From Candidatus Heimdallarchaeota archaeon (GTDB lineage Archaea > Asgardarchaeota > Heimdallarchaeia > JABLTI01): DNA of 56,840 nt. Position 1 is the first letter of the stretch. Every line of letters starts with the position of its first letter. This document shows, piece after piece, positions 24,657-43,305 of the stretch. The stretch lies in assembly GCA_019056785.1 (NCBI GenBank), contig DXJV01000030.1, forward strand, positions 1 to 56,840. The letters run 5' to 3'. A program made the translations under genes and the position numbers. Below the pieces are notes generated by a model that was not told the origin of the DNA, made no database searches, and saw nothing but the letters and a program-made list of their open reading frames with translations.

Positions 24657-24833
24657 AGTATGAATTTTTATGGGACTTTTTTTCATCCCATCTTTTTTCT
24701 GATTTTTTTTTCAGAGTGGAAAATTTCAACAACTCTTTATTCTGAATGAAATGATGCATTCTTCTTGATATTATAAGGCATAATAGTTAATAATTCTGTG
24801 AACTTAAAGTACTTAAAACTACGAGGTAATAGT

Positions 24834-25604
24834 ATGACATACGATAAATCATTAATAGATGAGCTTGGTAAACATCATTATGCGAGATGTATCTGTAAAG
24901 AAGATTTTGATGTTTCAACCGTTTTTATCGGTTTTCCAGGTATGGGGCTAGCTGGAGCCATTGCTGTCCAGCATATGGTTGAAAAATTGGAATTAGAAAC
25001 AATTGGTTTTGTTGAAGGGATAGTTATTCCTCCAATTGCAGTGTTCTTAGATGGCTTTTTACGGCATCCCTATCGCATCATGGGAAAAAAGGGCCTTGAT
25101 GTTGCCTTTTTCATAGGCGAAAGTGCTGTGAATGCAGATGGCGCCTATCATATCGCCGAAGCAATTATGAATTGGGCAGAAAAACACGGAGCAAAAGAGA
25201 TCATTATTCTTGATGGGTTTGCTTATCTGAACAAAGATGATGAAGGAGAAGTCTATCTTGTTGCGGAACCTGAAATTAAAGAGAAGGTTCAGAAATTGGG
25301 TATTCCCCCTCTAAAAAGTGGCTATATAAAAGGCTTCCCTGGCGTCATGCTAAATAAATCTATGACAAGTGCCATTGATGGGTTCGCTTTTCTTGTTGGA
25401 ACACGCCCGGATCTTCCCGATCCTGGAGGGGCCGCAGCTTTAATACAAAAAGTAAATTCCTATAAAAAACTGAATGTCAATGTTGATACCCTAATTGAGC
25501 AATCGGAATCTATCAAGAAAAAACTCCAAGAACTCGCCGCTCAGACACAAGAGCTTTCTGCACCAACTCGGGACCTCTCGCGAAAAAGAACATTCTACAC
25601 CTAA
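24834..25604 (+). CDS. PAC2-family proteasome assembly chaperone
   Basis: GFPGMGLAGAIA, PDPGGAAALI, C-terminal coiled coil and aromatic tail (TFYT); GAGGT SD before ATG 24834. Confidence 0.9.
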   Translation: MTYDKSLIDELGKHHYARCICKEDFDVSTVFIGFPGMGLAGAIAVQHMVEKLELETIGFVEGIVIPPIAVFLDGFLRHPYRIMGKKGLDVAFFIGESAVNADGAYHIAEAIMNWAEKHGAKEIIILDGFAYLNKDDEGEVYLVAEPEIKEKVQKLGIPPLKSGYIKGFPGVMLNKSMTSAIDGFAFLVGTRPDLPDPGGAAALIQKVNSYKKLNVNVDTLIEQSESIKKKLQELAAQTQELSAPTRDLSRKRTFYT

Positions 25605-25705
25605 CCTTTTTCTCCCCTTTTTTTATTTTGCTGTAGGGCTTTTCTGCATATCAAGCATAAGATAATTTAAGTATAAAAAGGAGAATACATGTTGGAAGTG
25701 AAATA

Positions 25706-26302
25706 ATGTCAGTGGAGATTCTTTCCTTTTGTATGGAAGCGTTGCGCCTAAAACGAATGCTTCGGAATGGGTGGGTTTTTTCCGGTGTTGCAGCTGCTGA
25801 AGTTGAAAGCGTAGCGGATCACAGTTATATGGTTTCTTTACTTGCAATGTTAATAGCCCTTCATGAACAAGAGAAAGAAAAGAAAATTGACCTTGAGAAA
25901 GTTCTCATAATGGCTTTAATTCACGACCTTTCTGAGAGCGTTTCTCAAGACATTGACCGCCGTATAGCAAAGTTTGCTCCAGAGGAATTTACTGCGTTTA
26001 AGAAAAAATTAGATAAGCAAGCATTAGCTTTTCTGCTCGAAAAATTATCACCAGGAATGCAAACAAAACTTTCAGCAATTTTTGAAGACTATCAACAACA
26101 GCAAAGTCCAGAAGCACGCATTGTTTCCGAAGCAGACCGCTTAGAAACAATTTTCCAATTAAAAGAATATATAATGCTTGGAAAGCAAAGGGAGAATTTT
26201 AGTGAATTTTACGCTAATTTTAAAGAAGAAAAAGAAAAATTTCAAAATCCACTCGTTAAAGAACTTGCGCGGTTATTATTACAAGAGGAGACAGAAAAGT
26301 AA
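25706..26302 (+). CDS. HD-domain 5'-deoxynucleotidase (YfbR/HDDC2-like)
   Basis: LKR..RNGW, ESVADHS, ALIHDLSE, ADRLE. Confidence 0.92.
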   Translation: MSVEILSFCMEALRLKRMLRNGWVFSGVAAAEVESVADHSYMVSLLAMLIALHEQEKEKKIDLEKVLIMALIHDLSESVSQDIDRRIAKFAPEEFTAFKKKLDKQALAFLLEKLSPGMQTKLSAIFEDYQQQQSPEARIVSEADRLETIFQLKEYIMLGKQRENFSEFYANFKEEKEKFQNPLVKELARLLLQEETEK

Positions 26303-27054
26303 TGGTAGATGATTCATACAATAATAGTCGCTATGCGCGCCTAATACCTTTATCTAATGTTGGGAAAGAAGGACTGAAAAGAATCCGAAAAGCACGAGTA
26401 GTTGTTGTTGGTTGCGGAGGGTTGGGTTCTGTGACTGCTGTCCAGCTTACATCTCTTGGCGTTGGCTTTCTCCGAATTGTCGATGGTGATGTTGTTGAGA
26501 TATCCAATCTACAACGACAAACTCTCTATCGCGAGGAAGATATTGGAAAACCCAAAGCAGATGTTGCTGAAGCATTCTTGAAAAAATTGAACCCAGACAT
26601 TCAAATTGAGAAGGTTGGGGAGTATCTTTCTGAAGAAAATATCGAGAAGATCACTTCTGAAGTGGATTTCATTATAGATGCGGTTGATAATTTCAAGACG
26701 CGCTATTTACTTAATCGTATTGCCATAGAAAAAGACATTCCCTTTATCTTTGGCTCGGTGAGTGCCTATAGTGGAAATGTAATGACAATACAACGAGGGA
26801 GCGTTTGTTTAGAATGTCTTTTTGGTCAGGATTTTGATGAAATCCTTACAGATACCACTTGCACAGGTGTTCATCCTGCGATTATCAACATTATTGGGAG
26901 TATTCAGATCTCTGAAGCAACGAAAATAATGTTGGGAGAAACCCCATCTCTTCTTAATAAATTGCAATTTTGCGACATCCGAACAATGGATTTCGAAGCA
27001 TTGTCTTTAAAACCGAATCACAGTTGCTTCTGTAGAAAATATGTGAAGAAATGA
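26302..27054 (+). CDS. ThiF/MoeB/UbaA-family E1-like adenylyltransferase
   Basis: VVGCGGLGS, DVVEISNLQRQ, DNFKTR, Zn ligands CLEC..CFC, candidate catalytic Cys in TTCTGV; TAATG-coupled to the HD gene. Confidence 0.93.
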   Translation: MVDDSYNNSRYARLIPLSNVGKEGLKRIRKARVVVVGCGGLGSVTAVQLTSLGVGFLRIVDGDVVEISNLQRQTLYREEDIGKPKADVAEAFLKKLNPDIQIEKVGEYLSEENIEKITSEVDFIIDAVDNFKTRYLLNRIAIEKDIPFIFGSVSAYSGNVMTIQRGSVCLECLFGQDFDEILTDTTCTGVHPAIINIIGSIQISEATKIMLGETPSLLNKLQFCDIRTMDFEALSLKPNHSCFCRKYVKK

Positions 27055-27409: not shown

Positions 27410-29656
27410 TTACTTTAAAGTAAACTTCCGTCGAGTAGTTTTCTTGTTAGGTTTAAATCCAAATGCTAAGCCAATGGTAAGTGAAATGAAAAGAATAAAT
27501 AAGCCAAGCTCAACTCCCAAAAAGGCATTCGCAAGTCCGGCGTTGCCAACCTTTGTTGCGATGATAGTATTAAGATTTAACACATATGCAAGAACACCGA
27601 AAATGCCTGTGAAAAGGCCAAGAATGCCAAAGAAAGTCATCCAGAAAGGACTAATTACCTTTGAAATGATATTAAGATTGATGAGGTTTTTCTTACCAGC
27701 CCACAAACCTATTTTTCCTGAGATTTTTCCTCGTTTAACCAGCGGGGTGACATTAAATTCTATTTTAGTGTCTGTTTTTCCATCAAACTCCAACAACTCT
27801 TCATTTGGAGTGACATAACAACCAGGGAGACGTGGCGCAAGACGCAATTCGAGAGATGAGAGCTCCTCTATAGTCCGTTTTGGCAACGTAATTATTAAGG
27901 GGTAAATCTTCTGAGGGTACATCCGTTCATAATAATCAATTGAAATTGTTATTTGTGGTGGCTGTGACACTGTCTGTTCTTCTTCAATAATAGCTGCTTG
28001 AAGTGTTTTCAGCTCTTCTTGTTTTTGTTGTAGCCGTTCATCCAAACTTAACACTTCAGAAGGAGCAGGTGGAGGAGTTGTGACAACAGGCTGCTCAGCA
28101 ATTGCCTGAACCTCTTCAGCAGGAGCTTCTACCTCCTGCCTTTCTATGGGAGCAATTTCTTCTTCCAAAGGCTCTTCTTGGAGAGAAGTTTCTAAAACAG
28201 GTTGTAAACTTAGCTTTTCTTCTCGTTCTGCCGTTTCTTCTACTGGTTCCTTTGCTTCTTCTTCTTCCTCCTGGATATAAGGAATGGTATAAGAAGCTTC
28301 TTCAGGTGCGGAAGCTTCTTGAACAAACTCTTCTTGAGTCTCGAGTTCTTTCAGAGGTATTATCCTTTCAGTTTCATCAACCTCAGGTAAATCGTATGAA
28401 GAGATCATTGCTTCTTCAGTTTCTTTCTCAATAGTGGAAAGTTTGCCTTCTAGTTGTTTCATTTCGTCTTCAAAAGTTAAAACTTCTTGAGTTTCTGCCG
28501 CTTCAGCAAACTCTTCTGCTGGTTCTTCTACTTCAGGGGGTTGCTCAGCTTCGAATGGTTCTAAAGGCCCTTTCCGGAGTTCGCTTTCCTCCTCTTCTTC
28601 AGCCATAATCCCTCTAAATACTTCTGCTATTGTTGTTTTATCAACAACTCGCGGTTCAATGGGTTTTTCTGTCAGTTCTTCTAAAGGTGGAATGGATTCA
28701 TATTCCTCTTCTGATTTTCCTTCTTCAAAAAGATCTGTTTTTTTCACTTCATCTTCAATTGATATTTCATCCATTAACTGTTCAATATCCTCAGTGGGCT
28801 TTTCTTCAATAGTACTGCTAACCTCACTTTCACTCGTTGAGATCGTTTCTTTTTCCCAAGGATATTTAGCTTTTATGTCCTCAGTTGGCGCGATGGCTTT
28901 TGTAAGAAATTCTTCGGAACCCTCCACTTGTGCTTCTGTACTCAAAACTTCCTCCTTTCGAGGTTCCTCTTCTAAACGGTCTATATAATTTTGAGTTATT
29001 TGATCCACTTCCGACTCCTCTAAGGGAGAAGCATCAATGAGTTCTTTTGCAACCTCGATTATATCCGAGCCATCTAATTTTGGCGGATAAACCATTTCAT
29101 CCTTCAATGGGCTTTCCGATTTAACTGCTTCTTCGACTGGTTTGGAGCGAACAGGTTCAACATATACATCACCACTTTCACGGCTGACAATCTTATAGTA
29201 GTTTCCCCAAGAATTCAGAACAAAAGCAGTTGGAAGGTTAAAAACTTCATAGTCCATTACTTGCCCGTCTTGCCGCTCAATGCCTACCTCTCGCGTCTTT
29301 AATTCAAGGCTTTTACAAGCAGTTCGATAAGTGGCTGCAAAAGGAATAGATTCCGGAACTTCCAAGTCAACGATGTAATTACCATAATTAAATGTGACAA
29401 AACTCGCTTCGCCAGCATAAAATTCTGTGCCATATTTTTGGACTAAATAATCTACAGCAGAATAATGGTTTTCAAGGATAATAACTTCCCCTTGTAAATT
29501 GATAATTGCCACAACTTTTGGTTGGACCTTCAAAGTTGTTTCAAGTTCATCTAATAGCTGGATTAACAATGTTCCGCGTGGGACCTTAAAGGTAAAGTCG
29601 ATAACCTCGGAATCTATTAATACTTTAAAATTGATTGTATGATTATATCCGCTCAC
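27410..29656 (-). CDS. membrane-anchored protein: two tandem UFM1-like beta-grasp domains, acidic linker, coiled coil, Ig-like domain, 2 TM
   Basis: Domain 2 LEVPESIPFAA..VGIERQDG..VLNSWG..KIVSRE and domain 1 INFKV..KVP..KVQPKVVAIINLQG..QKYGTEF resemble UFM1. Long E/P-rich linker; C-terminal TM hairpin. Confidence 0.7.
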   Translation of the reverse strand: MSGYNHTINFKVLIDSEVIDFTFKVPRGTLLIQLLDELETTLKVQPKVVAIINLQGEVIILENHYSAVDYLVQKYGTEFYAGEASFVTFNYGNYIVDLEVPESIPFAATYRTACKSLELKTREVGIERQDGQVMDYEVFNLPTAFVLNSWGNYYKIVSRESGDVYVEPVRSKPVEEAVKSESPLKDEMVYPPKLDGSDIIEVAKELIDASPLEESEVDQITQNYIDRLEEEPRKEEVLSTEAQVEGSEEFLTKAIAPTEDIKAKYPWEKETISTSESEVSSTIEEKPTEDIEQLMDEISIEDEVKKTDLFEEGKSEEEYESIPPLEELTEKPIEPRVVDKTTIAEVFRGIMAEEEEESELRKGPLEPFEAEQPPEVEEPAEEFAEAAETQEVLTFEDEMKQLEGKLSTIEKETEEAMISSYDLPEVDETERIIPLKELETQEEFVQEASAPEEASYTIPYIQEEEEEAKEPVEETAEREEKLSLQPVLETSLQEEPLEEEIAPIERQEVEAPAEEVQAIAEQPVVTTPPPAPSEVLSLDERLQQKQEELKTLQAAIIEEEQTVSQPPQITISIDYYERMYPQKIYPLIITLPKRTIEELSSLELRLAPRLPGCYVTPNEELLEFDGKTDTKIEFNVTPLVKRGKISGKIGLWAGKKNLINLNIISKVISPFWMTFFGILGLFTGIFGVLAYVLNLNTIIATKVGNAGLANAFLGVELGLFILFISLTIGLAFGFKPNKKTTRRKFTLK

Positions 29657-33087: not shown

Positions 33088-36000
33088 ATGTTTGAAAAAA
33101 TCGAAAAAGCTCGACAGGTGCTTGCTTCAGGTTCAACCAAAGCAGCAATCGAAGAATATTTCCAAATAATCGATTTGCTTCTAAAAAAGAAAAATAACGA
33201 AGAAGCAGCACGATTGTTACAAGAGCTAATTGCTAATATTTTGGGGGAAGAAAACAAAAGAAACATCTATCTTTTGGCAGAACAACTAATTAAAAGGCTT
33301 TCAACTTTTAAACTAAAAGATTTCCAGAAATCTGTTGTGAAATTTGACGAATTTCTTTCAAAAACCAAGAGCCTTTACCGGACAGCAGATGAATCGTTTG
33401 ATAAATCTGCAATTATAGCAGAAGCCCAAGCGGTCTTTTATAAAAACCACAAAATGGATGGAACAGTTTTCCTCCTCGAAGCCGCAAATGACTTGAAAGA
33501 ACAAATTATCAAAATTTATAGTAAACCACGAGTCCGTGAGGAAGAAGAGAAAGAAGCAAAGGAACATTTAAAACATGCAATCGAACTTTTTCAACAATTA
33601 GAGCAACAAGAGGTTATTGCTGAGCTCTTTGAGACCATAGTAGCTAAGCAGTTGGAAAATAAGAATGTAGAAAAAGCCGAGAAAATTTTGGACATGGCAA
33701 TCGACTATCTTATGGACTTAAAGGGTGAAGAAACGACTATAACTGCTTTCGCAGAAATAATCATGCAAGTATATGTTTCACTTATCGAGTTTAAAATCCA
33801 GGATATCCTTAATCCGGAAATGCCCATTAGCAAATTTGAGGCCATTAAATTTGAAAATAATGTTGCGACAAGGTTTATCAAACATGCAAAGGAGATTTGC
33901 TTAAAAAAGAAGGCCAAAAAAGTAATTCTAATTTTGGCAAAAGAGCTCTCACTCATAGGTTTGGCACTCTTTGAAAAGGGGCAGGAGCAATATGCTTTGG
34001 CATATTTTGAGGAAGCAAAAAACTACTATTTGGAAGTTAATGATGTAGATAAAACAATAGATTTTGGTAAAAATGTTACCTCTTTAGGCCTACAACTCTT
34101 CTCAAAAGAACAGTACCCTATGGGAAGAGACTATTTGTATATTGCTATAGAAATCGCTAAAAAAATTGATCGTTCTTTTGAAATCGAAATCTATCAAAAA
34201 GAAGCTGCACTCTATCTCAAATATCGGAAATATCAACTTGCTTATGAAGCTTACCGAAAAGTAATCGAGCCATTACAAGCTCTACCTGAAAGCGAGTTGC
34301 GAATTGAGATTCCACGAGAAATACGTCAATTAGGAAAAGAGCGATTTGATAAGAATGATTTCCACTATGCAGAGCTCTTTTACCGTTTGTCAGCAGAATT
34401 CTTTGCGGCATTCAATCAGTTAGAACTTGCTGCAGACACTTTAGATGCTTCATGGCCACCTATGTTCAAAGTAAGACAATTACAAACAGGCATTGATTTA
34501 GCAAGAAAAGCTGCAACAGCATATATTGAAGCAGATAATGCTGAGGCTGCGGCGGACGTTTACTTCAAGCTTGGACAAGAATTGCTAAAAGAAGGGCATT
34601 ATGATATTGCACTGGAACAACTTCGCCTTGCTGCCCAGACAATTCCCGAGTATTTACGCGAAGAGAAATTTAAACCATTAGTTAAAGTAACAACTTCCTT
34701 TACTGAACAATGTTTGAAGAGTGGCGATATTATTAACGCACGTGAGTTATGGAGCGCTGCCTGCGAATTCAACGAGACTCTTGCAAGATCACTAATAAAA
34801 CGAGACATTGAGAGCGTCGTAGAAACAATTGAGGACCATATAAAAAATGTACGAAAATTTGACAACGAAGAGCTGAATGAAATTACGATTGATTCTGCTC
34901 AAAAGAGTGCACAAGTTCTCTCAGAAGCAAAAGACTATGAGCGTGCAGCTAAAATCCTCGTTAGTTTTGCCGCGGACTTTCTCCGGAAAAATAAAGTTGA
35001 TTATGCAAATACATTATTTGAGCAAGGAGCCTCTGAATTTATTAAAGCTAACCTTCCACGGGAGGCTGCTCGCGTACTCTCGACCCTAGCACGCTATCAT
35101 TGTGAGCATCAAGACCATGAGAAGTGTCTTTATTATTATCGTAAAGCATCTATTGAAAGTGAAGAGCTCCCTGAGAAAGAGATACTTGATTTCCTAGGCG
35201 ATCATTGTTATGAATCCTATGTCTCTTTACTTGAGAGAGGGGCAAGTGATGAAATTATCAAAAAAGGTTTTCAATTAGCAATAGAAATAAAACTTGCAAG
35301 CAGTAAGGAAGCAGCTGGCTATTTGAGTCACACCATTGCTCAAAAGTTCTTTGAAAGAAATAAGACAGAAAAAGCACTTATCTATTATCAAAAGGCAATT
35401 CAATTTTTCTTGGAAAGCGACAAGCAAAAAGCAGTAATTGTGGGAGCTGAAGCAATTGAAAGAGGGCGCAAAGCCTTTCAAAATAACATGATCCTTGAAG
35501 CTGAGAAATTAATTAAAGAAGGCATTCTTGCCCTGGAAAACGGTGGGCAAGTTAAACAAGCAGCCCAAACAGCACGAATTGAAGGGGAGAAATTTCTTAC
35601 AACTGCTTATCCAGACCTTGGCTTGAATTTTCTTAATCTTGCGAACCAAAACTATAAGCAATTAAAAGATTTGCAAAATGCAGCGGAAATACATAAAACT
35701 AAGGGACAATTCTATTTCAAAAAGTACAATTTTAATGAGAGTAAAATAGAATTTGAGCACGCCGGAACAATCTATTTAGAAACGAAAAACACAAACGCCC
35801 TGAAAAAATTGATTTTAGAGCTGCAAGAACTCGCAACTAAATTTATCCTCGCAAAGGAATTACCAAATGAGGTTATTGGAGAGCAAGAAAAGCAAGGTAA
35901 AGAGTTCATAAAACTTGCTATTGATTTTGCAGAGAAAATTAAAGACTTGGAATTAAGTAAAGAAATTAAATATACTAACTGGCAATTATTTGCAAAGAAA

Positions 36001-39000
36001 GCGATGCATGAAAGTGCTTATGAATTCCTGCAAGAAACCTTCACAAATTATGAAAAATTAAAAGATCTAAAAGCAATCAGCCTTTTAGCGCAAGAGGTTG
36101 CTAAGTTCGCTACAAAGCTTATTCAACAAGAAAATCTTGCTCACGCTACTAAATACCTTAATATTGTTCTCGATAAGCTGAATGAAACCGCAAAATTCAA
36201 AGAAGCTGCTGGTATTTGCTTGGAAGCAAGCGAGACTTTCCTTAAGAAGAACAATAATGAAGTGGCGGTATCATGGGGGTTACGAGCAACAGACATTATG
36301 TTAAAAGCAGATTTAGAGAAGGAAGCAATTCAATTTCTAAAAGAATTAGTGGAACAACTTATGATTCGTAATAGCATTGAAAATGCCATTCTTTGCTATG
36401 GAAAAATCGCTAAAATTTATGAACAAAGCAATCGTTTAAAAGAAGTAGAGGACATTGCTCTGGAAGTCATGGCTTTTGGGAAAGCGAATATGGTTAACAA
36501 CAATCCCGAAGCAGGACTTAGGCTCTGGGAAGTAGCTTTAACCATTGGTGCTATTGTCGGAGAAGAATTCACAGGACGACTTTGTGAAATCGAAGGACAA
36601 ACATTTTATGAAATTAAACAATTTGACAAGTCTATCGAACTATTCAAAGAGAGCTATATGCTATTCAAACGCACAAAAAAACTCAGCCGGCTAATTAATC
36701 TCGGGACTGTTATCTTCCAGATTGCCAAAGACCTTCAAAAGGAAAACAACTTTGATATTGCTTTCAAATACATTCCTCTTGGCTTCGAATCCCTTATAGC
36801 TGGCAAAGATGTTTTACTTGCAACAGAAAATATGTTTGGCCATGCAAAAAATTATATCGAAGTTAATAAAGATAAAGAAGGGTTTCATCTCATCAATACC
36901 ACTATTGATACACTCTTTTCTATTGGTGATGTTGTTGCTGGCGTAGAACATTGTTTTGTTGGTGCGGCGCTTCTTGTTTCTTATGGAAAGAATACCGAAG
37001 GAAGCCGACTTATCGATAAGGGGATGGAAAAAGTAACGCAAATTACGGACGAGGCAGCTATAAAACACCTGGCAACGGTTTGCCGGAATCAAGGCATCAT
37101 TCTTCGTGAGAATGAAAAATTAGAAGCGTCACATATTATGCTTGCTTCAGGGATAGGCATTCTTCGAACGATAAACGATCTTATCGGCATTGGAATGATA
37201 AGCATTGAACTAGGGCGAACATTAATTCAACGAAATGAGATGAATGCTGCAGTCGAAGCATTTCGCAATGGTGTCCAACTTATGGCTCAAGGCAATTTGA
37301 AGAAAGAAGCAGTTGCTGTAATTAATGAACTTATTACTCTTGGCAGAAAAGAAATTGATAATAAGAATATCACAACTGGTGTTCCCCTCGTCGACCTTTC
37401 AGGCGAATTGTTCATTTTGCTTGGGTACCCCGAAAGGATTATGGTAATCTCTGAGATTTTCATCAATCTCGGTGGCAAGATGTTGGCAGAAAGGAATTAT
37501 GAAATCGCTGCGCTCTATTTCTCAAAAGCTATGGAATTTGCTATGAAAGCCAACTTACGCGATTATCTTCCCAAAGTGGGTAACCGGTGTATTGATTTCG
37601 GTTTCAAACTTGTCAAAGAAGAAGACCCAATTCTTGGCATTCAATTCATGAACGCCGGAGCGGACCTCATTAGTCAATTCGAACAAAAACCCGAAAAAGC
37701 CGGCAGAGCAATGGTGAACTTCATTGAAGCCATCAATCAAATTTTAACAATAGAATATGCTCAAAGTTATGAAGATGAGAGCGATTACCTCGAGTTAATT
37801 GAGCAATTTGTTGGTTCTGCGATTAAATTCTTTACACAAATAAGTGCAGCTAAATCACTCGAGAAATTAGCTAAAAACCTTATTGCCTATGGAAAGAGTA
37901 TCATTCAAATAAAGCAACCTGGTTTTGTCCGGCGGATTTTTGAGCCCGCATTACGCGCTGCAGAAAATGCCCAAAACACAAAACTACAAATCGAAATTGC
38001 CCACATATATTTGGAGCATGTAAACTATCTCATTGAGACAAACAATTTACGATATCTTGAGACAACCGTGAATCAAGCAATGAACATCTATCTTTCTGTG
38101 AATGACATGAAGGAAATTCGAAAATTCATTGGAGTCACAGTAACAAATGGACGAGAGCTTTGTCTCAATCCTGCCACGCGAGAATACGGGATCAAAGTAA
38201 TTAATATGTTGATCGGTATAACAGAAAAACTCGCTAACCAAGAACTCTATCCCGTTATTCTTCTTCCCATCATTTTCCTAAATCAGGTAGCATTGGAGGA
38301 GGAAAATCTTGAAATAGTGATTTTTGCCCGGCAAAATGTTCTCAGACTTTTAAACTCGATCTTGGAAGCAAATTATTCCTTGGCTATTTTAGGAAACTTA
38401 AGCTTGTCCAATATGATTTTTGAGTGGTATCAAATTGCTGAAACGCTCTTGCAAAAACAAGAAACATTCGATCAAGCGATTAATGTTATTAACCAGACCC
38501 TTCAACTCGCAGTAATAACCCAGCAAGTTGAATTGGGCAATGCTGTTATTGAAAAGGTTTTGGAAACATTAGAATCGATGGTTCGAAGAAGAACAAAAGG
38601 CTTGGAGCTTCTCTATGAAATTCTAGCTATTGGTTCAAATGGCCTTGGACAAGTTCAACAAGTCGTAAACCTTGGGAGAAGATGCTTCGAATTAGGAAAA
38701 GAAGCCGCTCAGAAGAGGCATTTAAAAGAATCAATTGATTATCTTAAAGCAGCAGGAAGGATATTTGCCCTTTGTAAAAATGAAGCTTTTATTGCAAAAG
38801 TAGCAATTGCTTGTGCAACTTTTGGAGACCAGCGATTAAAAGAGAGGAATATCAAAGAAGGATTATACTATTATTCTGCCGCATTGGAGAATTATGAGCT
38901 CTCGGAAGATGAACGAAGCATTAAAATCATTGCAAGTACGATTGAGAAACTCTTTGAAAGTACCCCCACACAAGATGGTTATTTATGCTTCCTTATTCCC

Positions 39001-40014
39001 GGCATGGTTTATGCAAATCGCAATGAAACCAAACAAGCCCAAACACTAGCAGGGAAAGCTCTTCAAAGTGTAGATTCAATGCTCAAATCTCGAAAGAAAG
39101 AACTTGTTTACGATTCGATTCCTTATCTCTTTGCTGCAACAGACATCTATAATCAACTTGACGACCTTGAAAAAGAAATGAACATTTATGATGAGTTTAT
39201 GTTCAAGTATCTAACAGCCGTTAATGATATGAAGATTATTGAACTCTTCCTTGATTTACTCGTACGAACATTAATGCGCAAATTACAGAAATGGGACTTT
39301 CAAGCAATTGATGAGCTCTTCGAGAAAATTACCGATCAACGCGTCTTGAAGTCTAAAAATTATCAAGCTATTTTTGAGACAATAAACGCGTTAAAAACAG
39401 GTGATATAATTTTTGCTCAGGATCTTGCTACAAAAGTGAATGTGAAATTTGAACGTAGCATTCGAGACTTTGTTGATTCTTATAGAGAACAAATAAAGAA
39501 AGACATTTTCCAAACCGGAAAACTAAGTATTCACACCTACATGAAAGAACAGCCCATTGCACCTCTTGTGAATGTTCTTATTCATGATTTGTATGCCAGG
39601 AAAGAAATCGAAGGAAAGTACTTCCCCATTGGCCTATTTGTCTCGAGCGAGCAACTAAATAGTATCTTTGAATTCCTTGATGCTAAACTATCAGAAACCG
39701 GAAAGGCAACTATTGCAGAGGTTGCCCAGAACACTGCTTTAACCAACAATGAAGCATTGAATGTCATTCGATTGGAATACCTCCCACAAAAGTTCCAAGC
39801 ACGATTAAATGAGGATCAAACAGTACTCTATACTTATCTCCAATTACGAAACGAAGTTAAACAGCTTGCTTTAAGTTATCAAGAAATAGGCAATATTGAT
39901 ATTAACAAAATCTCACAGCAATTAAAATTCCCACCTGAAACAATCAAAAGGGAAATCGAATATTTGATTTTAGAGGGAATGATAAACCCACGACTTGTAG
40001 GTAGAACGGTATAA
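33088..40014 (+). CDS. giant SNAP/TPR-like alpha-solenoid with C-terminal PCI/UFL1-like winged-helix repeats
   Basis: 2308 aa of helical repeats (AA..F..AA..Y type). Last ~170 aa carry three WH-like units (GKLSI.., GKATIAEVA.., GNIDINKISQQL..LILEGMI). Confidence 0.8.
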   Translation: MFEKIEKARQVLASGSTKAAIEEYFQIIDLLLKKKNNEEAARLLQELIANILGEENKRNIYLLAEQLIKRLSTFKLKDFQKSVVKFDEFLSKTKSLYRTADESFDKSAIIAEAQAVFYKNHKMDGTVFLLEAANDLKEQIIKIYSKPRVREEEEKEAKEHLKHAIELFQQLEQQEVIAELFETIVAKQLENKNVEKAEKILDMAIDYLMDLKGEETTITAFAEIIMQVYVSLIEFKIQDILNPEMPISKFEAIKFENNVATRFIKHAKEICLKKKAKKVILILAKELSLIGLALFEKGQEQYALAYFEEAKNYYLEVNDVDKTIDFGKNVTSLGLQLFSKEQYPMGRDYLYIAIEIAKKIDRSFEIEIYQKEAALYLKYRKYQLAYEAYRKVIEPLQALPESELRIEIPREIRQLGKERFDKNDFHYAELFYRLSAEFFAAFNQLELAADTLDASWPPMFKVRQLQTGIDLARKAATAYIEADNAEAAADVYFKLGQELLKEGHYDIALEQLRLAAQTIPEYLREEKFKPLVKVTTSFTEQCLKSGDIINARELWSAACEFNETLARSLIKRDIESVVETIEDHIKNVRKFDNEELNEITIDSAQKSAQVLSEAKDYERAAKILVSFAADFLRKNKVDYANTLFEQGASEFIKANLPREAARVLSTLARYHCEHQDHEKCLYYYRKASIESEELPEKEILDFLGDHCYESYVSLLERGASDEIIKKGFQLAIEIKLASSKEAAGYLSHTIAQKFFERNKTEKALIYYQKAIQFFLESDKQKAVIVGAEAIERGRKAFQNNMILEAEKLIKEGILALENGGQVKQAAQTARIEGEKFLTTAYPDLGLNFLNLANQNYKQLKDLQNAAEIHKTKGQFYFKKYNFNESKIEFEHAGTIYLETKNTNALKKLILELQELATKFILAKELPNEVIGEQEKQGKEFIKLAIDFAEKIKDLELSKEIKYTNWQLFAKKAMHESAYEFLQETFTNYEKLKDLKAISLLAQEVAKFATKLIQQENLAHATKYLNIVLDKLNETAKFKEAAGICLEASETFLKKNNNEVAVSWGLRATDIMLKADLEKEAIQFLKELVEQLMIRNSIENAILCYGKIAKIYEQSNRLKEVEDIALEVMAFGKANMVNNNPEAGLRLWEVALTIGAIVGEEFTGRLCEIEGQTFYEIKQFDKSIELFKESYMLFKRTKKLSRLINLGTVIFQIAKDLQKENNFDIAFKYIPLGFESLIAGKDVLLATENMFGHAKNYIEVNKDKEGFHLINTTIDTLFSIGDVVAGVEHCFVGAALLVSYGKNTEGSRLIDKGMEKVTQITDEAAIKHLATVCRNQGIILRENEKLEASHIMLASGIGILRTINDLIGIGMISIELGRTLIQRNEMNAAVEAFRNGVQLMAQGNLKKEAVAVINELITLGRKEIDNKNITTGVPLVDLSGELFILLGYPERIMVISEIFINLGGKMLAERNYEIAALYFSKAMEFAMKANLRDYLPKVGNRCIDFGFKLVKEEDPILGIQFMNAGADLISQFEQKPEKAGRAMVNFIEAINQILTIEYAQSYEDESDYLELIEQFVGSAIKFFTQISAAKSLEKLAKNLIAYGKSIIQIKQPGFVRRIFEPALRAAENAQNTKLQIEIAHIYLEHVNYLIETNNLRYLETTVNQAMNIYLSVNDMKEIRKFIGVTVTNGRELCLNPATREYGIKVINMLIGITEKLANQELYPVILLPIIFLNQVALEEENLEIVIFARQNVLRLLNSILEANYSLAILGNLSLSNMIFEWYQIAETLLQKQETFDQAINVINQTLQLAVITQQVELGNAVIEKVLETLESMVRRRTKGLELLYEILAIGSNGLGQVQQVVNLGRRCFELGKEAAQKRHLKESIDYLKAAGRIFALCKNEAFIAKVAIACATFGDQRLKERNIKEGLYYYSAALENYELSEDERSIKIIASTIEKLFESTPTQDGYLCFLIPGMVYANRNETKQAQTLAGKALQSVDSMLKSRKKELVYDSIPYLFAATDIYNQLDDLEKEMNIYDEFMFKYLTAVNDMKIIELFLDLLVRTLMRKLQKWDFQAIDELFEKITDQRVLKSKNYQAIFETINALKTGDIIFAQDLATKVNVKFERSIRDFVDSYREQIKKDIFQTGKLSIHTYMKEQPIAPLVNVLIHDLYARKEIEGKYFPIGLFVSSEQLNSIFEFLDAKLSETGKATIAEVAQNTALTNNEALNVIRLEYLPQKFQARLNEDQTVLYTYLQLRNEVKQLALSYQEIGNIDINKISQQLKFPPETIKREIEYLILEGMINPRLVGRTV

Positions 40015-41309: not shown

Positions 41310-41726
41310 ATGCTCGAACATGCGATCATTTTCTCGAAAGAATCCCAAAGTATCATTCTTACTTCTCTCTATGGTGAAGTCGATCCCAAAGCTGATGCTT
41401 TTAAAGATTCACTTGAGAAAATTCGGGAAATTGCAGTAAAACTCGAGAAAGGAGTCTTTAAGCTTGATCTTGCAAATAATGGGAAAACAATGATTGTCGC
41501 GATAAAGAATTTATCGATAGCCATTACTTTTAACAAGATAGCAAAAGAAGAGGTAATGAATTTTTGGGAAAGCGTGGCACTCGAAATTTTAAAGAGTTTT
41601 GATAAAATTTATGTCACAAAAGATCCTGCAAAAATTCTTGCCTTCAAAGATACCATGGATGAAATTATCCAATGGAATTTAAAAGAACAGTCCCCAATTG
41701 ACAAAATGAAAGAGGCATTCTGGTGA
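41310..41726 (+). CDS. small longin-like domain protein
   Basis: 138 aa with a b-b-a-b-b-b-a-a pattern (HAIIFSKES..IILTSLY..; EILKSFDKIY..FKDTMDEII); AGGAGA SD. Confidence 0.6.
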   Translation: MLEHAIIFSKESQSIILTSLYGEVDPKADAFKDSLEKIREIAVKLEKGVFKLDLANNGKTMIVAIKNLSIAITFNKIAKEEVMNFWESVALEILKSFDKIYVTKDPAKILAFKDTMDEIIQWNLKEQSPIDKMKEAFW

Positions 41727-41747
41727 AAAGGAAGGTGTACTACTAAA

Positions 41748-42563
41748 ATGGCTGAACTTGATATACCAACTATCCCAAACTTGCAATCATTAATAATGAT
41801 GGCCATTACGGCTTTTTCGGTATCAATAATTGTGATATTACTCTTTATCAAATATTTCCAAAGAAAAAGACTGCCGGCATTAACCCTTGCATTTACGTTC
41901 TTAATGTGGGATTTTGCTAGCCTGATAGTATTTATTTTTGGATTAATTCATTATTTAAACTATTCAACTCCACAAGTTGGAGTAATTCAGTATGCTCGCT
42001 ATGGGATCAACCTTGGCTATGCATTTTCTGCCCTAAGCAATGCATTAATGGTGCTCTTTGTTTCACAAATTTATAGTCAAGCACCAATCTTTCGCAAAAC
42101 AAAAAAGATTATCCCCATTGTGAATGGCTTATTGAATGGAGTTACGATTGGTTTTGTTGTAGACTCAATTATGCAGAGTTTTGTATTTACCGATGTGGTT
42201 TCTTACCTAAATCCTGCCTACTCTTTAAATCAGATCATTTACCATCTTGTTCTGACCTTCTTCTCATTCACTTTATTACTTAGCTTGAGTGCACGACAAC
42301 GAAGAAAAGCAACATTTCGCTGGGAAAAAGCAGGATTCAGCTTCATAGTTTATTCGGCGATTGCAGGTATTTTAGTGTATGTTTTCCTAGCATTAGATGA
42401 ATTAGCACAAACATTCATCCCACTCTTTAATGAGGGGTACACAATTTTCAATATAATTGGCTGGGCTTTTGGGATTTTACTCTGTATTTTAGCCTATTTT
42501 GGTTATGTGATGCCAAAATGGTTAAGAGACCGGTACAAAGAAAAAACTTTGGAGGTAAAATAA
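41748..42563 (+). CDS. seven-TM membrane protein (paralog 1)
   Basis: Seven hydrophobic helices ending AYFGYVMPKW; clear paralog of the next gene. Confidence 0.85.
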   Translation: MAELDIPTIPNLQSLIMMAITAFSVSIIVILLFIKYFQRKRLPALTLAFTFLMWDFASLIVFIFGLIHYLNYSTPQVGVIQYARYGINLGYAFSALSNALMVLFVSQIYSQAPIFRKTKKIIPIVNGLLNGVTIGFVVDSIMQSFVFTDVVSYLNPAYSLNQIIYHLVLTFFSFTLLLSLSARQRRKATFRWEKAGFSFIVYSAIAGILVYVFLALDELAQTFIPLFNEGYTIFNIIGWAFGILLCILAYFGYVMPKWLRDRYKEKTLEVK

Positions 42564-42564
42564 G

Positions 42565-43305
42565 ATGTCATTATACTTACCAGCAGCAATAGTAGAAACA
42601 TTTGTGTTCTTCTTTGCAACTTTCATTGTAATTATGCTCTTTAAGAAATATCGAGAACGGCGAAAGCCGGCAGCATTAGCATTAGCAACTGCCTTTACCT
42701 TCTGGGAGATAGCAATCATTTGTTTAATGGTTATGAGATACGTTACTTATGTAGCAGTTGACTTGCATCTGATCGATGATTCAATTAATTACGCCGGAAT
42801 AGGCATTAATCTTGGATATCTCTTTTCAGCGGTGAGCAACGTTTTAATTTTAACATTTGTAGCAATTGTTTTTTCACAATCGCCATTTTTCCGTTCGACA
42901 GGAATGTTCCTCCCCTTCAGCTTTGGGATATTAAATGGTGTAACTGTTGGCTTGCTCATTTCAAATCTTATCCGAAATCCTCTCACTCCAGAATACAGCA
43001 TGACAATCACTCTCTATCATGTTATGCTAACTTTTGTTTCATTCAGTGCTTTGATCATTTTCACTGTAAAACCACTTCGACAGGCAACATTTAAATGGGA
43101 AAAAGTTGGTTTCCGGTTTATCATTGGCTCAGGCGTTGTAGGCATTCTGATTTACGTGTCATTTGCAGTGGACAATATCATCCCAATCGATTATTCGGCA
43201 TTCTTCTACTTGGCATATGCCTTTGCAATTCTGATGCTAATATTTGCTTACATCGGCTATGTTATGCCCAATTTCATTCGAAAACGTTTACAAGAACCCA
43301 TGTAA
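42565..43305 (+). CDS. seven-TM membrane protein (paralog 2)
   Basis: Seven helices; shares PA..LA.[AT]F..W, GINLGY.FSA.SN, LNGVT.G, YH..LTF, ATF.WEK.GF and AY.GYVMP with paralog 1. Confidence 0.85.
   Translation: MSLYLPAAIVETFVFFFATFIVIMLFKKYRERRKPAALALATAFTFWEIAIICLMVMRYVTYVAVDLHLIDDSINYAGIGINLGYLFSAVSNVLILTFVAIVFSQSPFFRSTGMFLPFSFGILNGVTVGLLISNLIRNPLTPEYSMTITLYHVMLTFVSFSALIIFTVKPLRQATFKWEKVGFRFIIGSGVVGILIYVSFAVDNIIPIDYSAFFYLAYAFAILMLIFAYIGYVMPNFIRKRLQEPM

Follow-up and report, generated by a model that had tools for sequence, protein, structure and literature searches.

Background

Winged-helix (WH) domains that follow one another and carry long first helices are found in UFL1-DDRGK1 (UFBP1; PDB 8b9x, 8ohd, 8qfc, 9gy4, 8c0d; PF09743, PF09756), and a TPR-like repeat that leads straight into a WH domain is characteristic of the PCI subunits (PF01399) of the proteasome lid, the COP9 signalosome (CSN) and eIF3, such as Rpn6, CSN2 and CSN4. 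Domains of the E3_UFM1_ligase type have already been noted in Asgard archaea (Liu et al. 2020, 10.1101/2020.10.19.343400; 10.1101/2021.04.02.438162), where Vps28-C proteins combined with TPR and helix-turn-helix (HTH)/PCI domains have also been described (Makarova et al. 2024, PMC10936438). UFL1 and DDRGK1 have been proposed to be Asgard in origin, with UFM1, UFC1 and UFSP2 restricted to eukaryotes (PMC10183829). Here we describe a gene of a Candidatus Heimdallarchaeota archaeon whose 2308-aa product, referred to below as the giant, closes an alpha-solenoid of about 2,100 residues with an array of three WH domains. The gene lies on contig DXJV01000030.1 (56,840 nucleotides, the whole of which is called the window) of a metagenome-assembled genome (MAG) of 2.87 Mb that is 82.5% complete. 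On balance, the giant is probably a cytoplasmic mega-scaffold without enzymatic activity, which docks onto other proteins through its WH tail and originated in one family of Heimdallarchaeia.

Set against these systems, the giant is a new architectural variant made from known parts, a SNAP/TPR solenoid and a PCI/UFL1-type WH array. The array of UFL1 is N-terminal, whereas that of the giant is C-terminal and follows 2,118 solenoid residues; the giant lacks both the UFC1-binding helix and the UFL1 C-terminal domain, and its identity to UFL1 is 12-17%. The giant shares with UFL1-DDRGK1 a run of WH domains whose first helices are long; partial WH domains occur in UFL1-DDRGK1, and the terminal WH of the giant is likewise incomplete. 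PCI proteins resemble the giant in running from repeat into WH, but they are 400-500 aa long and have one WH and a C-terminal bundle helix, whereas the giant has a solenoid about five times longer, three WH domains and no known lid-like partner set. The repeat type is held in common with alpha- and gamma-SNAP and Sec17 (PF14938; PDB 2ifu, 9nly). However, SNAPs are about 290 aa long and contact NSF through a helical bundle at their end, and the giant shows no sign of binding SNAREs or NSF. IFT139/TTC21B, Ski3/TTC37 and Ctr9, which are platforms in multi-protein complexes, likewise have unbroken stretches of helical hairpins longer than 1,000 residues, yet these have no WH tail and no detectable sequence relation to the giant. 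The nearest outside relatives of the tail are Asgard multi-WH proteins of the E3_UFM1_ligase/DDRGK/PCI kind, some fused to Vps28-C (10.1101/2020.10.19.343400, PMC10936438), which are 260-790 aa long and have no giant solenoid. No description of the giant family was found in the literature searched, and the architecture, which a preliminary description of this DNA had not recognised from eukaryotes, is indeed unknown there.

Results

The giant gene and its solenoid

The giant gene is real, since there are 19 further homologues of near-equal length (mostly 2306-2308 aa, with 52-82% identity in the tail) and no stop codon interrupts the open reading frame (ORF) across 6.9 kb. This uninterrupted frame is the single ORF of at least 100 aa over the interval when either strand is counted, and its translation contains all of the C-terminal peptides cited in the preliminary description, which had placed the gene at the same position; it is on the plus strand. 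That the ORF might be spurious is ruled out by full-length conservation in 11 other genomes. Where the source names its homologues, they are called hypothetical or 'TPR repeat protein', and they come from MAGs labelled as Heimdallarchaeota or Asgard group, with one labelled as Bathyarchaeia.

The solenoid consists of roughly 50 TPR/SNAP-like helical hairpins that recur about every 40 residues. A Pfam scan of the whole protein gave weak TPR matches and did not list SNAP; when residues 425-824 were scanned alone, SNAP was matched at 34 bits (cut-off 25; profile positions 59-142 of 282) and TPR_2 at 34.7 bits (cut-off 27), and a SNAP match is precomputed for several homologues. Weaker TPR matches in the 400-residue pieces continued up to about residue 1,500, past which the C-terminal match stood alone, and no 400-aa segment of the giant contained an enzyme domain by Pfam. 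The AlphaFold2 (AF2) model of residues 901-2100 (25 sequences; mean pLDDT 88.5, pTM 0.48) contains about 58 helices, each 17-20 residues long and connected to the next by a 3-residue turn, forming continuous hairpins with no inserted domain. The Pfam matches and this all-helical model uphold the earlier reading of more than 2000 aa of SNAP/TPR-type repeats. Comparison of the giant with itself in 160-residue blocks using hhalign yielded scattered weak repeat signals of up to 93%, and no large internal duplication was seen at that block size. The solenoid showed no transmembrane segment, no signal peptide and no catalytic domain. The protein is acidic, with an isoelectric point of 5.6.

Conservation among orthologues peaks at residues 250-650, at residues 1050-1550 and in the last WH. 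Within the second of these, which is the most conserved block, lies a GLRLWE motif, of which the G, L, W and E do not vary in either the giant or its twin paralogue (see below), and residues 1050-1550 are a candidate partner-binding core.

The winged-helix tail

The last 309 residues were modelled by AF2 (20 sequences; pLDDT 90, pTM 0.75) as five hairpins followed by three WH domains. A WH tail had been proposed for the last ~170 aa; WH domains are present there, but the array is larger, with three units that begin at residue 2119. WH3 breaks off before a full wing hairpin; its helix 3 is followed only by INPRLVGR, a short and highly conserved tail. The net charges of WH1, WH2 and WH3 are +2, -4 and +1, and those of the orthologues are mostly negative. 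Because the charge is neutral to acidic, the tail appears to bear no nucleic-acid signature. A reading as a transcription regulator was rejected on the acidic WH domains together with the 2,100-aa solenoid.

Searched with the last 224 residues, Pfam returned E3_UFM1_ligase above its cut-off (E 1.7e-5, 25.1 bits against 23.2; profile positions 109-227 of 272), and the tail scored 21.8 bits to the same model within its 400-aa segment. PCI followed below cut-off (E 0.037, 14.7 bits against 22), and then weak matches to RuvB_C, RPA_C and Cullin_Nedd8. The five best PDB matches to the tail model in Foldseek were all UFL1 or a UFL1-DDRGK1 chimera (8b9x, 8ohd, 8qfc, 9gy4; E 8.8e-6 to 3.9e-4, prob 1.00), with CSN subunits, SelB, proteasome lid subunits and Odinarchaeota Vps25 ranking below them. 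This agrees with the earlier expectation that the tail would prefer UFL1, DDRGK or PCI over generic HTH proteins. VIA-align superposed the model on 8b9x_B with Z 10.8 (178 residues aligned, model 124-306) and on the UFL1 of 9gy4 with Z 9.7 (199 aligned). The final repeats of the solenoid, alone or together with WH1, superposed on gamma-SNAP 2ifu (Z 12.0) and Sec17 (Z 11.7). The repeats also matched Rpn6 with Z 11.4 over model 7-144, and the repeats plus WH1 matched CSN2 (8h38_B) with Z 9.3 over model 7-189, as fits the parallel that had been drawn with the PCI architecture. The human UFL1 string given in the preliminary description does occur in PDB chain 8b9x and is aligned by HMMER with the segment cited, and phmmer of the tail against PDB reached 8b9x at E 0.086 only. 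Scores of at most 0.84 to PCI, TPR and SNAP clusters in the ESM Atlas are leads only.

Among 1.84 billion representative proteins, a tail profile matched only 14 at E<=1e-3, namely 10 members of its own family, three multi-WH proteins and one generic HTH-repeat protein. The three multi-WH proteins (259-787 aa, E 9e-5 to 4e-4) have PCI, DDRGK and E3_UFM1_ligase matches; one carries a VPS28 C-domain, and the one with a taxon label comes from a MAG of Promethearchaeota (Asgard phylum). With the 787-aa protein of this group hhalign gave 83% probability and E 9e-6 over 159 columns. The tail belongs to the WH-array class (PCI/DDRGK1/UFL1) already known in Asgard archaea and is not a UFL1 orthologue, and the idea that the giant bridges the PCI and UFL1 families is unsupported; the likeness is that of one WH-array class and not one of orthology.

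The likeness to UFL1 has further limits. At E<=0.01 the E3_UFM1_ligase model was matched by 3 of 20 family tails and the PCI model by 2 of 20 (best 0.0024), and a mixed profile of orthologue and twin tails run against PDB sequences with hmmsearch found no UFL1, giving chance cytochrome b562 matches only. The E3_UFM1_ligase model cross-reacts with other WH arrays, for in the same genome it also picks up a small, unrelated WH-repeat protein (24.9 bits) and ScpB (13 bits).

The ScpB gene, whose product has tandem WH domains, lies on contig C78 (L003:1393-2235, plus strand). The small WH-repeat protein has 283 aa and is encoded on contig C41 (L002:1066-1917, plus strand). Its E3_UFM1_ligase match covers profile positions 192-258 and is accompanied by weak PCI and DDRGK matches, and its gene adjoins one for a ribosomal stalk P1-like protein, whose tail is acidic (EEEEE...GLSSLFG). 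The 283-aa protein could be the small protein of UFL1/DDRGK1 type that the literature mentions for Asgard archaea, and it is a candidate partner for WH-WH docking.

A twin paralogue and the distribution of the family

To examine the phyletic distribution, as suggested earlier, the tail was looked for in 301 genomes of the phylum, and a full-length profile was run on all 83 genomes of the class. Matches to the tail, and full-length matches to the profile, came only from a single GTDB family of Heimdallarchaeia (f1). The tail was found in this family (10/10) and in none of the about 290 other genomes of the phylum, and full-length matches were obtained in 11/11 other genomes of the family and in none of the other 71 genomes of the class. 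Outside the family the class held weak matches to the TPR region only, in proteins that are almost all much shorter.

Each family genome with enough assembly contains a second match, at about 20% identity, in another frame of about 2,310 aa. In the present genome this twin paralogue agrees with the giant by BLASTP at 19% identity over residues 798-2259 (E 5e-41), and by profile-profile comparison with hhalign from residue 1 to the end (prob 100, E 1.4e-66, 2202 columns). The seven twins collected are 2302-2306 aa long and align in 2306 columns, and overall giant-twin identity is 18-19%. Such tight length and register at less than 20% identity argues for a strong geometric constraint, as indels are nearly absent between families that differ this far in sequence. 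The twin has the length and the solenoid/three-WH layout of the giant; its tail has no Pfam match and its WH1 is basic. Prediction of a complex between the two 309-residue tails, run without controls, gave ipSAE of 0.00-0.01, which counts neither for nor against binding.

The genomic context of the twin differs from that of the giant. Directly upstream of the twin and on the same strand (L026:2323-4476, plus) is the gene of a 717-aa FG-GAP-repeat protein with a zinc-ribbon hint and weak matches to the BBS2/BBS7 beta-propeller, all below cut-offs. This adjacency is present in the genome studied here and in six other family genomes (seven in all).

Gene neighbourhood

Coordinates of the giant, its parts and the twin are collected in Table 1. 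The giant gene is monocistronic; it is divergent from the upstream beta-CASP gene, with a gap of 230 nt, and convergent with the downstream GHMP kinase gene, with a gap of 28 nt. Genes around it in the window encode a homocysteine methyltransferase, a PAC2 protein, an HD hydrolase, a 250-aa ThiF protein, a 748-aa membrane protein, an Alg9-like glycosyltransferase, the beta-CASP nuclease, the GHMP kinase, three proteins without a Pfam match, a phosphoribosyltransferase, CGI-121 and a THUMP protein. By tblastn the 30-kb neighbourhood is colinear in five other family genomes, and because the whole 30 kb is colinear across the family, synteny is uninformative on partners.

Table 1 Features of the giant, its domains and its twin paralogue (window positions unless another contig is named)
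Feature	Residues	Coordinates	Strand	Basis or remark
Whole giant gene		33088..40014	+	2308 codons plus stop; ATG start
Alpha-solenoid	1-2118	33088..39441	+	Pfam TPR_12/TPR_2/SNAP; AF2; Foldseek
SNAP/TPR_2-matching stretch	425-824	34360..35559	+	Pfam scan of 400-aa pieces
Most conserved orthologue block	1050-1550	36235..37737	+	Mean 0.76-0.88 per 50-residue bin
WH1	2119-2186	39442..39645	+	AF2; with preceding helices a PCI-like unit
WH2	2187-2249	39646..39834	+	AF2; aligns with human UFL1; acidic
WH3	2250-2308	39835..40011	+	AF2; best-conserved part of the tail
Twin paralogue		C44:40612-47523 (L026:4613-11521)	+	2303 aa

Several other loci in the window were recorded. The three genes without a match to Pfam at E<=0.1 are tightly packed at 41310-43305 on the plus strand (138, 271 and 246 aa), and their order is kept in all related genomes checked. 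A row of same-strand genes at 24798-27054 (plus) comprises a PAC2-family gene (proteasome assembly chaperone 2-like), the HD phosphohydrolase and the ThiF-type E1-like gene (26302-27054). The 748-aa membrane protein is encoded at 27410-29656 on the minus strand and has no Pfam match at E<=0.1. An archaeal 16S rRNA gene (5' 832 positions, 736 bits) occupies positions 1-841 on the minus strand and is cut by the contig end.

Discussion

If the giant is a scaffold, its solenoid, and above all the core at residues 1050-1550, would offer partner proteins long binding surfaces, and the neutral-to-acidic WH tail would dock it onto another protein or complex by analogy with PCI complexes, ESCRT-II and UFL1-DDRGK1. 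The near-absence of indels at 18-19% identity suggests that the twins may work together in a geometry-constrained assembly. Several points weigh against this reading. The gene context points to no specific partner of the giant. The term scaffold is partly concluded from absence, and the conserved core may hold an unrecognised activity. Joint action of the twins rests on co-occurrence and equal length in one set of related genomes. The AF2 models span residues 901-2100 and the last 309, and with a pTM of 0.48 the predicted long-range shape of the solenoid is uncertain.

It is unlikely, in our estimate, that the giant is a UFL1/DDRGK1-like adaptor of a UFM1-like system. Its tail would then bind two fused putative UFM1-like domains at the tip of the 748-aa membrane protein, encoded 3.4 kb upstream, perhaps with involvement of the nearby ThiF-type E1, and the scaffold would be tethered to the membrane without covalent conjugation or through a still unrecognised E2. 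In structure the tail is closest to the UFL1/DDRGK1 array, the ThiF gene lies within the same syntenic block, and homologues of the 748-aa protein in five related genomes have sub-threshold Ufm1 matches of 18-20 bits at their N-terminus. Full-length matches to the 748-aa protein are likewise confined to the family (10/11 genomes). A link to the giant would fit this shared restriction, which however counts for little, as related genomes have most genes in common. However, neither UFC1 nor free UFM1 was found above cut-off in 12 family genomes (64-92% complete), the Ufm1 matches being all sub-threshold and within homologues of the 748-aa protein. Positions 1-108 of the UFL1 profile, which hold the helix for UFC1 binding and the partial WH for pairing with DDRGK1, are unmatched in the giant tail. 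The giant and 748-aa genes also stand on different strands with two unrelated genes between them (glycosyltransferase and beta-CASP), the family-wide 30-kb synteny does not discriminate, and the 250-aa ThiF protein is of a common housekeeping type. The giant is most likely not a UFM1 E3 ligase, and an E3 role is unsupported. The preliminary description had offered a large scaffold or an E3-like adaptor; the first is the best reading, whereas the second suffers from a profile match limited to positions 109-227 and to 3 of 20 tails, from UFC1 and free UFM1 not having been found in the 12 genomes, and from no catalytic domain having been seen.

We also think it improbable that the giant is a coat- or train-like scaffold of membrane traffic, in which the solenoid would be a partner of beta-propellers, as in the intraflagellar transport complex IFT-A, the BBSome or coatomer, and the WH tail would lead to ESCRT-like machinery. 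A propeller beside a giant solenoid recalls coat or IFT/BBSome logic, and the FG-GAP gene that precedes the twin, with its BBS2/BBS7 matches and its conservation in six other genomes, is of this kind. Foldseek with the 901-2100 model has IFT139 of IFT-A, Ski3 and Ctr9 as its best matches, a VPS28 C-domain occurs in one of the tail's closest relatives from outside the family, and the Asgard combinations of Vps28-C with TPR and HTH/PCI (Makarova et al. 2024, PMC10936438) point the same way. Yet the TM-score of the Foldseek matches is about 0.1, which shows a repeat type in common with IFT139, Ski3 and Ctr9 and nothing further. The BBS matches lie below cut-offs, the giant gene itself adjoins no propeller gene, and synteny within one family is weak evidence.

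A more specific proposal, to which we give a slim chance, is that the twin giants represent a pre-UFM1 form of UFL1-DDRGK1 docking. Each WH tail, with its incomplete last domain, would either be completed by that of the other twin or hold the fixed tandem UFM1-like head of the membrane protein encoded nearby, which is just as restricted in lineage, giving a membrane-anchored mega-scaffold with conjugation-free recognition of a ubiquitin fold. If true, this would be a living example of UFL1/DDRGK1-type WH arrays before UFMylation.

Nucleic-acid binding by the tail, to RNA in the manner of SelB or to DNA like WH-type HTH regulators, with the solenoid as a platform on ribosomes, mRNA or chromatin, is highly improbable. 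SelB arrays and many single regulators are among its structural matches, and UFL1 acts on the 60S ribosome (titles of PDB 8ohd and 8qfc), but the WH domains of orthologues are neutral to acidic, and UFL1 and PCI rank above the SelB and regulator matches, each of which covers no more than one or two WH.

As a probable protein-docking scaffold, the giant is of limited weight, coming as it does from one family of the Heimdall group. Nevertheless, it places a WH array of the UFL1/DDRGK1-PCI type at the end of an alpha-solenoid far longer than that of any PCI protein. UFL1 and DDRGK1 are said to be older than UFM1, and the giant offers a natural case of a UFM1-independent use of such WH arrays, given the 12 family genomes in which UFC1 and free UFM1 were not found. 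Twins that are equally long and colinear at less than 20% identity are unusual, and suggest that a close relative of eukaryotes has a large assembly under geometric constraint. What the giant shows is less the direct descent of a eukaryotic machine than how inventive Asgard archaea are with eukaryote-like parts.

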